A stretch of 64,000 nucleotides of DNA from Escherichia coli (GTDB lineage Bacteria; Pseudomonadota; Gammaproteobacteria; Enterobacterales; Enterobacteriaceae). The stretch is taken from the NCBI RefSeq assembly GCF_050320075.1, contig NZ_CP190018.1; one strand, written 5' to 3'. The position numbers and the translations under genes are program-made. The notes under the pieces were generated by a model, which made no database searches, was not told the DNA's origin, and worked only from the letters and a program-made list of their open reading frames with translations. Shown here in pieces: positions 46,700 through 52,356 of this stretch (position 1 is its first letter; the number at the start of each line of letters is the position of its first letter).

Positions 46700-47356
46700 T
46701 TAACAATTTCTGGTCGTGCATAAAATCAGGAACTGGAGTGGTGACGTTACTATATCCAGCGTAAGAGTGACTGGCAGCAGCGCATTAACGAGGCCGCGCG
46801 GGACGCCATCTGTTGCTTTGTACTCATAAAATCCCACCGTAAAGGGTTGATGGAAAACCATCACGTTTGAGTAATCCGCTTTTTTATTTTTCTGGTGGAT
46901 TGAGCCTGTCAAACCGTCCAGCATCCATGTACAACGCCGGGTATCACAAATAAAACCATATTGTGTTGCCAGTGCCTTATCTTCTTCGTTGTTCCAGTCG
47001 TAATAGAGCGTAATAGCACCAGAGAAATTTTTATTACTGCTGCTTAAAATAAATTTCGCGTTATCAGAAACGGTGATTCTTTCACCATGAATTGCCGGAT
47101 CGTTCAGCATTTTAACCACCTTATCGCCGCCGGTGGTCAACAGATAGTCCAACGATTCACCAACAAAAACATAGCCTTTCGTACCGTTACTATCTTCTGC
47201 CAGCGATAAACCCTTAATCGTGTCTGACCGCCATTGCTCGGCATGTGGACGGCTTGCAGTATTGGAAACCAATCCCCAAGTGATACATCCGGTCAACGCA
47301 AATGCCAAAGAACACAAACCGGCAGCCTTAAAAAATCCCTTAAAATTCAACTTCAT
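46700..47356 (-). CDS. yidX: Putative lipoprotein YidX
   Basis: Signal peptide with lipobox ([24 protein letters not shown]) beginning at the ATG at 47356. Track ORF extends a further 39 codons upstream. Confidence 0.8.
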
Positions 47357-47489
47357 GATTAATCCTTTAAACGAGTAGCTAAGCCGTTGAAAGCATACTC
47401 TTCTTTCCCTCCTGTTTAGCGCCTGACATCCCTTTTCAGATTTCTGCCCGACGCATGTCATTTTTTTATGCATTGTTCTTTTTGTGATC

Positions 47490-47575
47490 TAAATTGTAGT
47501 ACAACAATATAAGTTTGTACTACATTACGCACACGGCAAACGCGAACGTCATCACGCTAGTACTACAAAGTTGCC
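47490..47575 (+). promoter_or_regulatory. Putative DgoR operator / dgo promoter region
   Basis: Inverted repeats TTGTAGTACA ... TGTACTACA and a third TAGTACTACAA copy, 60-140 bp upstream of dgoR. Typical of GntR/FadR-type operators. Confidence 0.55.
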
Positions 47576-47633
47576 GCGTTATGCATCGATCGGGGTAAAG
47601 TAGAGAAGAACATACAGAGCACAAGGACTCTCC

Positions 47634-48323
47634 ATGACTCTCAATAAAACCGATCGCATTGTCATTACGCTGGGTAAACAGATCGTTCACGGCAAATACG
47701 TACCAGGCTCGCCGCTTCCGGCTGAGGCGGAGCTCTGTGAAGAGTTTGCAACCTCGCGCAACATCATCCGTGAGGTGTTCCGTTCGCTGATGGCGAAGCG
47801 GCTGATTGAAATGAAACGTTATCGCGGCGCGTTTGTGGCACCGCGTAACCAGTGGAATTACCTCGACACTGACGTACTGCAATGGGTGCTGGAAAACGAC
47901 TACGACCCACGACTTATCAGTGCCATGAGCGAAGTGCGAAATCTGGTGGAACCGGCGATTGCCCGTTGGGCAGCAGAGCGCGCGACCTCCAGCGATCTGG
48001 CGCAGATTGAATCGGCGCTGAACGAGATGATTGCCAACAATCAGGACCGCGAAGCGTTTAACGAAGCGGATATTCGCTACCACGAGGCGGTGCTGCAGTC
48101 GGTGCATAACCCGGTGTTACAGCAACTTAGCATTGCGATCAGTTCGCTGCAGCGGGCGGTTTTTGAACGAACCTGGATGGGCGATGAGGCCAACATGCCG
48201 CAAACGCTCCAGGAACATAAGGCGCTGTTCGATGCGATACGGCATCAGGACGGCGATGCGGCAGAGCAGGCGGCGCTTACCATGATCGCTAGCTCGACAC
48301 GAAGGTTAAAGGAAATCACATGA
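47634..48323 (+). CDS. dgoR: GntR/FadR-family repressor of the D-galactonate operon
   Basis: 229 aa with N-terminal winged HTH, first gene of the dgo cluster. Confidence 0.9.
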   Translation: MTLNKTDRIVITLGKQIVHGKYVPGSPLPAEAELCEEFATSRNIIREVFRSLMAKRLIEMKRYRGAFVAPRNQWNYLDTDVLQWVLENDYDPRLISAMSEVRNLVEPAIARWAAERATSSDLAQIESALNEMIANNQDREAFNEADIRYHEAVLQSVHNPVLQQLSIAISSLQRAVFERTWMGDEANMPQTLQEHKALFDAIRHQDGDAAEQAALTMIASSTRRLKEIT

Positions 48324-49198
48324 CAGCTCGCTACATCGCAATTGACTGGGGATCGACCAATCTGCGCGCCTGGCTTTATCATGGCGACCACTGCCTGGAG
48401 AGCAGGCAATCAGAAGCAGGCGTCACGCGTCTGAACGGAAAATCTCCGGCTGCGGTGTTAGCAGAAGTGACGACCGACTGGCGTGAAGAGAATACGCCAG
48501 TGGTAATGGCAGGAATGGTCGGCAGCAATGTCGGCTGGAAAGTTGCACCGTATTTATCCGTTCCTGCCCGTTTTTCGTCTATTGGCGAACAATTAACGTC
48601 GGTTGGCGACAATATCTGGATTATTCCCGGATTATGCGTCTCTCATGACGATAACCATAATGTGATGCGCGGCGAAGAAACACAATTGATCGGCGCGCGT
48701 GCTCTGGCTCCTTCCTCTCTTTATGTCATGCCCGGTACGCATTGCAAATGGGTGCAGGCCGATAGCCAGCAAATCAACGATTTTCGCACCGTGATGACCG
48801 GTGAATTACATCATTTACTGTTAAATCACTCATTGATTGGCGCAGGTTTGCCGCCGCAGGAAAACTCTGCCGATGCCTTCGCGGCTGGTCTTGAGCGTGG
48901 CCTTAATGCTCCCGCCATATTGCCGCAGATTTTTGAAGTTCGCGCCTCGCATGTGCTGGGAACACTTCCCCGAGAACAGGTCAGCGAATTTCTCTCTGGT
49001 TTGTTGATTGGCGCAGAGGTTGCCAGTATGCGCGACTATGTGGCCCATCAACACGCCATCACCCTTGTCGCCGGAACATCGCTGACCGCGCGCTACCAGC
49101 AAGCCTTTCAGGCGATGGGTTGCGATGTGGCGGCGGTGGCGGGCGACACGGCATTTCAGGCTGGTATAAGGAGCATCGCTCATGCAGTGGCAAACTAA
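48320..49198 (+). CDS. dgoK: 2-dehydro-3-deoxygalactonokinase
   Basis: 292 aa, start overlaps the dgoR stop. Confidence 0.9.
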   Translation: MTARYIAIDWGSTNLRAWLYHGDHCLESRQSEAGVTRLNGKSPAAVLAEVTTDWREENTPVVMAGMVGSNVGWKVAPYLSVPARFSSIGEQLTSVGDNIWIIPGLCVSHDDNHNVMRGEETQLIGARALAPSSLYVMPGTHCKWVQADSQQINDFRTVMTGELHHLLLNHSLIGAGLPPQENSADAFAAGLERGLNAPAILPQIFEVRASHVLGTLPREQVSEFLSGLLIGAEVASMRDYVAHQHAITLVAGTSLTARYQQAFQAMGCDVAAVAGDTAFQAGIRSIAHAVAN

Positions 49199-49799
49199 AC
49201 TCCCGCTGATCGCCATTTTGCGCGGCATTACGCCCGACGAGGCGCTGGCGCATGTTGGCGCGGTGATTGACGCCGGGTTCGACGCGGTTGAAATCCCGCT
49301 GAATTCCCCACAATGGGAGCAGAGCATTCCCGCCATCGTTGATGCGTATGGCGACAAGGCGTTGATTGGCGCAGGTACGGTACTGAAACCTGAACAGGTC
49401 GATGTGCTCGCCAGGATGGGCTGCCAGCTCATCGTTACGCCCAATATCCATAGTGAAGTGATCCGCCGTGTGGTGGGCTACGGCATGACCGTTTGCCCCG
49501 GCTGCGCGACGGCGACCGAAGCCTTTACCGCGCTCGACGCGGGTGCGCAGGCGCTGAAAATATTCCCTTCATCGGCTTTTGGTCCGCAATACATCAAAGC
49601 GTTAAAAGCGGTATTACCACCGGACATCGCAGTCTTTGCCGTTGGCGGCGTGACGCCAGAAAACCTGGCGCAGTGGATAGACGCAGGTTGTGCAGGGGCA
49701 GGCTTAGGCAGCGATCTCTATCGCGCCGGGCAGTCCATAGAACGCACCGCGCAGCAGGCAGCAGCATTTGTTAAGGCGTATCGAGAGGCAGTGCAATGA
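49182..49799 (+). CDS. dgoA: 2-dehydro-3-deoxy-6-phosphogalactonate aldolase
   Basis: 205-aa KDPG-aldolase-family protein overlapping dgoK. Confidence 0.9.
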
Positions 49800-50944
49800 A
49801 AATCACCAAAATTACCACGTATCGTTTACCTCCCCGCTGGATGTTCCTGAAAATTGAAACCGATGAAGGCGTGGTCGGCTGGGGCGAGCCCGTGATCGAA
49901 GGCCGCGCCCGTACAGTGGAAGCGGCAGTTCACGAACTGAGCGACTATTTGATTGGTCAGGATCCATCGCGCATCAATGACTTATGGCAAGTGATGTATC
50001 GCGCCGGATTTTATCGTGGCGGTCCAATCCTGATGAGCGCTATCGCCGGGATCGACCAGGCGTTATGGGATATCAAAGGCAAAGTGCTGAATACGCCGGT
50101 GTGGCAACTGATGGGCGGCCTGGTTCGCGACAAAATTAAAGCCTACAGTTGGGTCGGCGGCGATCGTCCGGCGGATGTTATCGACGGCATTAAAACCCTG
50201 CGCGAAATCGGCTTCGATACCTTCAAACTGAACGGTTGTGAAGAACTGGGGCTAATTGATAACTCCCGCGCGGTAGATGCGGCAGTCAACACCGTGGCAC
50301 AAATTCGTGAAGCTTTTGGCAATCAGATTGAGTTTGGTCTTGATTTCCACGGTCGCGTCAGCGCGCCGATGGCGAAAGTGCTGATTAAAGAACTGGAGCC
50401 GTATCGCCCGCTGTTTATTGAAGAGCCGGTGCTGGCGGAACAAGCCGAATACTACCCGAAACTGGCGGCACAAACGCATATTCCACTGGCGGCGGGTGAA
50501 CGCATGTTCTCACGCTTCGATTTTAAACGCGTGCTGGAGGCGGGCGGTATTTCGATTCTGCAACCAGATCTCTCTCATGCAGGCGGTATTACCGAATGCT
50601 ACAAAATTGCCGGAATGGCAGAAGCCTATGACGTGACCCTTGCGCCGCACTGTCCGCTCGGACCGATTGCACTGGCGGCTTGTCTGCATATCGACTTTGT
50701 TTCCTATAACGCCGTACTTCAGGAACAAAGTATGGGAATTCATTACAACAAAGGCGCGGAGTTACTCGACTTTGTGAAAAACAAAGAAGACTTCAGCATG
50801 GTCGGCGGTTTCTTTAAACCATTAACGAAACCGGGCTTAGGCGTGGAAATCGACGAAGCTAAAGTTATTGAGTTCAGTAAAAATGCCCCGGACTGGCGTA
50901 ATCCGCTCTGGCGTCATGAAGATAACAGCGTAGCAGAGTGGTAA
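49796..50944 (+). CDS. dgoD: D-galactonate dehydratase (enolase superfamily)
   Basis: 382 aa [32 protein letters not shown]... Confidence 0.93.
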
Positions 50945-51063
50945 TTCCTGCCACGTAAGCCCCTCATCGGGCACTAAAACAGCAATACAAAAATATAACC
51001 CTCTGTAAATTACAGGGCATGGTGAGCGGCTTCGCTATGCCCAAAATCTGGAGAAAGCTCGCT

Positions 51064-52356
51064 ATGGATATTCCCGTTAATGCAGCAAAGCCGGGGCGTC
51101 GGCGTTATCTGACGCTGGTGATGATCTTTATTACGGTGGTCATTTGTTATGTTGACCGCGCTAACCTGGCCGTGGCTTCCGCCCATATTCAGGAAGAGTT
51201 CGGTATTACGAAAGCGGAAATGGGCTATGTATTTTCGGCCTTCGCCTGGCTTTATACGTTATGCCAGATCCCCGGCGGTTGGTTTTTAGATCGCGTAGGT
51301 TCTCGCGTGACTTATTTTATTGCGATATTTGGCTGGTCAGTGGCGACGTTATTCCAGGGCTTTGCCACGGGATTAATGTCATTAATTGGTCTGCGCGCGA
51401 TAACCGGTATTTTCGAAGCGCCCGCTTTCCCGACCAATAACCGGATGGTGACCAGCTGGTTCCCGGAACATGAACGCGCTTCCGCCGTTGGTTTTTATAC
51501 GTCTGGTCAGTTTGTCGGTCTGGCGTTTTTGACTCCGCTGCTGATCTGGATTCAGGAGATGTTGAGCTGGCACTGGGTGTTCATTGTCACCGGTGGTATC
51601 GGCATTATCTGGTCGCTGATTTGGTTTAAGGTTTATCAGCCGCCGCGCCTGACCAAAGGCATCAGCAACGCTGAACTGGATTACATTCGTGATGGCGGCG
51701 GTCTGGTGGATGGTGATGCGCCGGTGAAGAAAGAGGCGCGTCAGCCGTTAACAGCCAAAGACTGGAAACTGGTGTTCCATCGTAAACTGATTGGCGTCTA
51801 TCTTGGGCAATTTGCGGTGGCTTCTACACTGTGGTTTTTCTTAACCTGGTTCCCGAACTATTTAACCCAGGAAAAAGGAATCACGGCGCTGAAAGCAGGC
51901 TTTATGACCACGGTGCCATTCCTCGCGGCGTTTGTCGGCGTCCTGCTCTCTGGCTGGGTCGCGGATCTGCTGGTACGTAAGGGCTTTTCACTGGGCTTTG
52001 CGCGTAAAACGCCGATTATCTGCGGCTTGCTGATCTCCACCTGCATTATGGGCGCTAACTACACTAACGATCCGATGATGATTATGTGCCTGATGGCGCT
52101 GGCATTCTTCGGCAACGGTTTTGCTTCGATTACCTGGTCGCTGGTCTCTTCTCTGGCACCGATGCGCCTGATTGGTTTAACCGGCGGCGTGTTTAACTTT
52201 GCCGGTGGTCTGGGCGGCATCACCGTTCCGCTGGTGGTGGGTTACCTGGCGCAGGGTTACGGTTTCGCGCCTGCACTGGTTTATATCTCCGCCGTCGCGT
52301 TGATTGGCGCGCTCTCATACATCCTGCTGGTGGGCGATGTGAAACGCGTTGGCTAA
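51064..52356 (+). CDS. dgoT: D-galactonate:H+ symporter (MFS)
   Basis: MFS transporter starting [22 protein letters not shown] at the ATG at 51064. Track start 51019 is upstream. Confidence 0.9.

Follow-up and report, generated by a model that had tools for sequence, protein, structure and literature searches.

How many operators does the repressor DgoR have at its own operon, dgoRKADT? The experimental model for K-12 has two, and a third has been predicted; we examined all three in the window, a 64,000-nucleotide stretch of an Escherichia coli chromosome. The feature as such is already known: experiments have established two of its sites, and the third is a published prediction. We conclude that the three repeats very probably form the operator region of an autoregulated dgoRKADT operon, in which the third repeat, S3, would be a weaker and probably auxiliary site.

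The initial annotation had counted this region as part of the expected backbone, and so it proved: the dgo part of the window is ordinary chromosomal DNA. Positions 47300-47700 (401 bp) match many complete E. coli genomes at 100% identity, and in these the stretch is annotated yidX / dgoR. In around 400 of 5,426 E. coli genomes the match covers less than 80% of this region, and 11 of the matching places lie on plasmids. Gene content and the RefSeq annotation on identical DNA put the repeats in the regulatory region of dgoRKADT, whose first gene encodes DgoR; downstream of it lie the regulated structural genes dgoK, dgoA, dgoD and dgoT (48320-52356, plus strand). The gene is annotated as DgoR by RefSeq on 100%-identical E. 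coli DNA. Its product has both domains of the GntR/FadR subfamily, an N-terminal GntR wHTH domain (PF00392, E = 2.9e-14) and a C-terminal FCD domain (PF07729, E = 2.1e-27), and PDB entry 7C7E matches it over its full length (residues 1-229, E = 3.7e-149).

Between dgoR and its divergent neighbour yidX lie 277 bp in the K-12 annotation. The annotated yidX protein has 218 amino acids, and its start codon at 47356 is preceded by a good ribosome-binding site. A longer yidX reading frame (257 amino acids, start at 47473), which would come to within 21 bp of S1, was rejected as an artefact of ORF calling. In one E. coli strain, ECCTRSRTH03 (NZ_CP041110.1), an IS66-family element sits at the equivalent of about 47621. 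It separates the dgo promoter region from the ribosome-binding site of dgoR, so that promoter region and gene no longer adjoin directly in that strain.

Table 1. Coordinates of the dgo sites, promoters and genes, as positions in the window
Feature	Position	Strand	Description
yidX	46700-47356	-	Divergent neighbour; annotated ATG at 47356; region annotated YidX/lipoprotein
CRP site	47483-47498	+	Class II, TGTGA-N6-TTGTA; position mapped from Belliveau 2018
S1	47494-47504	no strand	Published IR1; TTGTAGTACAA, 0 mismatches; centre -135 from dgoR ATG
S2	47515-47525	no strand	Published IR2; TTGTACTACAT, 1 mismatch; centre -114 from ATG
P1 -10 hexamer	47521-47526	+	TACATT; CRP-dependent, D-galactonate-inducible promoter; overlaps S2
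S3	47558-47568	no strand	Predicted third (auxiliary) DgoR site; TAGTACTACAA, 1 mismatch, at position 2
P2	47564-47604	+	Downstream promoter; RNAP site active in glucose, non-consensus
Shine-Dalgarno of dgoR	47623-47627	+	AAGGA; from sequence; conserved across enterobacterial loci
dgoR	47634-48323	+	GntR/FadR-subfamily repressor, 229 aa
dgoK	48320-49198	+	DGOK (NCBIfam/Pfam)
dgoA	49182-49799	+	2-dehydro-3-deoxy-6-phosphogalactonate aldolase (NCBIfam/Pfam)
dgoD	49796-50944	+	Galactonate dehydratase (NCBIfam/Pfam)
dgoT	51019-52356 (longest ORF)	+	D-galactonate transporter (NCBIfam/Pfam)

Three dyads upstream of dgoR

Three copies of a near-palindromic decamer, arranged as inverted and direct repeats, had been described between positions 47490 and 47575. 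All three were located there, as S1, S2 and S3, and a repeat finder recovered the relations between them: S1 and S2 form a 10-nt inverted pair with 100% complementarity, S1 and S3 form a 9-nt inverted pair, and S2 and S3 have a direct 8-mer in common. The description as a decamer can be refined, in that each copy is its own 11-bp dyad, TTGTA-N-TACAA, and the central base is C except in S1, where it is G. Because each copy is itself palindromic, the distinction between 'direct' and 'inverted' comes down to whether that central base is G or C. The dyads follow the FadR-subfamily geometry GT-N3-AC, with no mismatch in S1 and one each in S2 and S3; this spacing is given for DgoR in Suvorova 2015 (PLoS One 10:e0132618).

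Measured between centres, S1 and S2 are 21 bp apart, S2 and S3 43 bp, and S1 and S3 64 bp. At 10.5 bp per turn these distances amount to 2.0, 4.1 and 6.1 turns of the helix, the integral-turn spacing expected of operators in cooperative or looping repression of the lac O1-O3 or LldR O1/O2 type, and the three dyads therefore lie on the same face of the DNA. The centre of S3 is at -71 from the dgoR ATG and at about +32 relative to P1, and the dyad abuts the upstream edge of P2.

Published operators and promoters at dgo

The initial annotation had read the repeats as a multi-site operator for DgoR and had proposed a comparison with published DgoR binding data. The comparison supports that reading: S1 and S2 are the experimental operators IR1 and IR2 and fall within the repressor region mapped by Sort-Seq, and S3 coincides with a published prediction. 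IR1 is given as 5'-CTAAATTGTAGTACAACAATAT-3', which is S1 with its flanks, and IR2, described as 'closely spaced' and with 'one mismatch', is S2 (Singh et al. 2019 J Bacteriol, as quoted in PMC11705089 and PMC12288454). The primary DgoR operator is S1, which covers the -35 region of inducible promoter P1.

In Belliveau 2018 (PNAS), Sort-Seq in K-12 mapped a repressor-type signal to -140 to -110 from the ATG (47494-47524 in the window). Deleting dgoR or adding D-galactonate abolished the signal, and DgoR was recovered by DNA-affinity mass spectrometry with the -145 to -110 region. The EMSA probe GA149 (55 nt, GTGATCTAAATTGTAGTACAACAATATAAGTTTGTACTACATTACACGCACG), as published, spans S1 and S2 and ends 20-odd bases before S3. 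DgoR is reported to bind it with a KD of about 0.5 uM and to be released by D-galactonate, so that the published relief of DgoR occupancy by this ligand refers to a fragment carrying S1 and S2. Identity to DNA shown to bind DgoR thus holds for S1 and S2 only, S3 being outside both probes. The experimental model through 2025, as given in PMC11705089 and PMC12288454, has two DgoR dimers on IR1 and IR2, and the former describes DgoR as a dimer.

These K-12 results transfer directly to the window, because the two sequences are identical base for base over the CRP site, S1, S2 and the -10 element. Locus and repressor protein are the same as in the K-12 system with its IR1 and IR2, and only 3 of 201 bases differ, two of them in the S2-S3 spacer and one at S3 position 2. 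S3 itself is present in both the window and K-12, whereas the experimental K-12 model has two sites.

Belliveau 2018 also defines the promoter elements. The TGTGA half of the CRP site is placed at -160 to -140 (47483-47487) and its right half over the -35 element, which makes this right half also the left half of S1. The TGTGATC of the CRP half-site is at least 95% conserved in 81 sequences. A GATC at 47486-47489 lies inside it, with its A at -147 from the ATG. Salmonella dgoR is reported to have its single hemimethylated GATC at the same offset (PMC7708049), which fits protein occupancy adjoining S1. The wild-type -10 element is named as TACATT, between -120 and -100 (Belliveau 2018), and we infer a P1 transcription start near 47532-47533.

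A second RNAP site is placed by the same source at -70 to -30 from the ATG. Within P2 the block GGTAAAGTA (47594-47602) is at least 95% conserved in 81 enterobacterial sequences, and the TAAAGT that it contains is probably the -10 hexamer of this downstream constitutive dgoR promoter; no acceptable -35 element was found 17 bp from it. A scan of 47300-47700 for consensus sigma-70 promoters and terminators returned nothing, P2 included. We did not count this against the promoters, because P1 is CRP-dependent with a poor -35, P2 is non-consensus and both are experimentally defined.

Conservation of the third dyad and its possible causes

S3 has been predicted before as a DgoR site. In the S1 File of Suvorova, Korostelev and Gelfand 2015, the entry for E. 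coli b4479 gives TTGTAGTACAA, TTGTACTACAT and TGGTACTACAA as predicted DgoR sites, a purely computational listing of exactly these three sites, and entries for E. fergusonii, Enterobacter sp. 638, Cronobacter, Klebsiella and Shigella likewise have three predicted sites each. The main-text and supplement passages of that paper on DgoR make no comment on the spacing of S3, on its position relative to the two promoters or on its never-perfect dyad. In the literature to 2025, with Singh et al. 2019 as quoted by others, we found no experiment showing DgoR on S3. A Reg-Seq account states that the DgoR 'right site' went undetected, a term that may mean either IR2 or S3.

We then collected dgoR loci from 80 genomes, each representing one species of the Enterobacteriaceae, the Erwiniaceae or a neighbouring family, and scanned and aligned their upstream regions; 79 loci were usable. 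S1 was perfect in 74 of them. S2 had one mismatch in 71 and at most two in 77, the mismatch being mostly the final T, which also completes the -10 element TACATT. S3 had one mismatch in 66 loci and two in a further 10, giving at most two mismatches in 76/79. The arrangement is kept as well: the centres of S1 and S2 are 21 bp apart in every locus listed, and the distance from S2 to S3 is 43 bp in 70 of the 79, 42 bp in 8 and 44 bp in 1. Across the 70 loci with 43-bp spacing, pairwise identity was 99% for S1, 91% for S2 and 87% for S3, compared with 45% for the 32-nt spacer between S2 and S3. The sites are conserved at orthologous loci while their flanks diverge.

In Affinibrenneria salicis (Pectobacteriaceae) there are only two DgoR dyads, at -161 and -140, without a third, and the Pectobacterium entry in the Suvorova 2015 S1 File also has two sites; because of these two genera, S3 seems restricted to Enterobacteriaceae and Erwiniaceae. 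One sequence titled Chryseobacterium sp. 18061 (CACSKA010000004.1) has a dgoR with 90% protein identity to that of E. coli and an enterobacterial operator layout, and this assembly is probably contaminated or mislabelled. For Shigella flexneri SF3769, the same S1 File lists S1 as TTGTAGCGCAA, with two mismatches, which would weaken IR1 in that lineage.

Conservation of S3 could have a cause other than DgoR. The serious rival among the alternatives holds that S1 and S2 are the complete operator and that S3 is conserved for P2, as an upstream or -35-proximal contact of RNA polymerase, or for another factor. The reported RNAP site (-70 to -30) reaches into the right half of S3, and part of the conservation of S3 could therefore serve P2. 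In the Sort-Seq text, -140 to -110 is the only region with a repressor-type shift, and the -70 to -30 region is called an RNAP site (Belliveau 2018); the two-site model has persisted in papers from 2019 to 2025; and in most species a G or T at S3 position 8 breaks the AC core of the family motif. Against a promoter contact, the left half of S3 (47558-47562, -76 to -72) is outside the reported RNAP site and yet as conserved as the right half. Its T1, G3, T4 and A5 are kept in 74, 78, 79 and 79 of the 79 loci, and T7, C9, A10 and A11 of the right half in 75, 77, 75 and 77. These positions mirror the S1/S2 dyad and not a promoter element. The mismatched half, moreover, alternates among species, a pattern that makes sense only for a symmetric site whose halves are read together. 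We therefore consider it unlikely that S3 is kept for P2 or another factor, and likely, from the pattern of conservation, that it is a genuine DgoR site.

The S3 region lies inside the inferred P1 leader and is flanked by a 9-nt imperfect inverted repeat (47531-39 / 47571-79), and it could also have been preserved as an RNA element of the P1 5' UTR, whether a structure, a riboswitch or a target of an sRNA. RNAalifold found no conserved pairs across 32 species, and Rfam gave nothing at E <= 1. At -17.3 kcal/mol the minimum free energy was no better than that of shuffles (z = +1.16), and the arms of the flanking repeat are poorly conserved. An RNA-level explanation has a vanishingly small probability and is excluded. 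The inverted repeat was likewise dismissed as a feature of its own for its poorly conserved columns, as was the repeat TTATGCAT at 47466/47579.

A chance cluster of AT-rich near-palindromes in intergenic DNA is just as improbable and is also excluded: single sites with at most one mismatch are expected about 1.6 times per 64 kb, and one does occur in yidC, but three sites within 75 bp arose in 0/1000 dinucleotide shuffles of the window, at least three in 0/20000 shuffles of the intergenic region, and all three are positionally kept in about 77 of the 79 species. Matches to TTGTANTACAA with at most one mismatch number 4 in the 64-kb window against the 1.6 expected, 3 of them at dgo. The fourth (ATGTAGTACAA, 36405-36415) lies within the yidC coding sequence (36074-37720, minus strand) at a frequency consistent with chance, and was rejected as a real DgoR site. 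A loose cluster of 9-mers at 36169-36414, with near-matches at 36169 and 36325, is within the same coding sequence, also at chance frequency, and was set aside.

In these alignments the S3 dyad is never perfect. A perfect S3 was found in 0/79 species, and T at position 2 together with A at position 8 in none of the 79 (Fisher p = 4e-14, in a test that ignores phylogeny). Where the left half is degenerate, it reads TAGTA or TGGTA and is paired with TACAA; where the right half is, TTGTA is paired with TGCAA or TTCAA. On a rough neighbour-joining tree of dgoR, the degenerate side switched about 10 times. Given these limits of test and tree, the pattern is suggestive rather than proven.

Within E. 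coli, the perfect S3 TTGTACTACAA in its 32-nt context had no match among 5,426 genomes; the search needed an exact word of 28 bases, so other polymorphisms nearby could hide a perfect site. At S3 position 2 (47559) the window has A and K-12 has G. The window allele, TAGTACTACAA, occurs in 147 of the 5,426 complete genomes and the K-12 allele, TGGTACTACAA, in 4,802. The minority allele is also the form found in Salmonella, Klebsiella and several Citrobacter. S3 thus appears, from these alignments, to be held by selection at sub-maximal affinity.

Proposed operator arrangement and its meaning

Related repressors offer points of comparison. LldR is a FadR-subfamily repressor with at least two dyad operators that flank the promoter, one of them near +30, and a cooperative or looping mechanism has been proposed for it. 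The dgo region resembles that system in having a FadR-subfamily repressor, multiple dyads and one dyad downstream of the transcription start near +30. It differs in that two adjacent sites overlap the promoter and one is distal, with a second promoter beside the distal site, and in that looping or a tetramer is only putative for DgoR. The LldR operators, O1 and O2 of lldPRD in E. coli, were reportedly described by Aguilera and colleagues (J Bacteriol, 2008). NanR, known from cryo-EM work cited in PMC11705089, is a GntR/FadR-family repressor with three repeats in one regulatory region, as at dgo; the NanR repeats are adjacent direct copies of GGTATA, whereas those at dgo are separate dyads 21 and 43 bp apart.

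In the arrangement that we propose, one DgoR dimer would occupy each 11-bp dyad, with one wHTH domain per TTGTA half-site. A dimer on S1 covers the right half-site for CRP and the -35 element of P1, and a dimer on S2 covers the -10 element TACATT, so that two bound dimers exclude CRP and RNA polymerase. Binding of D-galactonate to the FCD domain takes DgoR off the DNA. The literature has shown this occlusion and release on K-12 DNA, to which the window is identical at both sites.

S3 would be a third, weaker DgoR site, some four turns of the helix downstream from S2 and directly adjoining P2 at its upstream end. Judged by its sequence and position, S3 would most likely serve as an auxiliary operator, in either of two ways: same-face cooperativity with S1 and S2 might stabilise repression, or S3 might provide mild autoregulation by damping P2 when DgoR is abundant. 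Looping among the dgo sites would need higher-order contacts beyond the DgoR dimer; in the literature we found no evidence of a DgoR tetramer or of bridging between operators. The further proposition, that S3 is a functional DgoR site kept weak by selection, that dgo is a three-operator device and that the two-site model is incomplete, we hold to be evenly poised between right and wrong.

In the main, these results describe the expected regulatory DNA of a well-studied E. coli sugar-acid operon. What remains of value to those who study DgoR is a strongly conserved, never-perfect third site that lies outside the probes of the binding assays, and the strain of the window carries its minority allele. 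The dgo operon is repeatedly under selection in the gut, and dgoR recurs in the literature on the evolution of E. coli in the gut. If the three-operator reading is true, S3 would either bridge to IR1 and IR2 or set the basal, P2-driven level of DgoR and DgoT.
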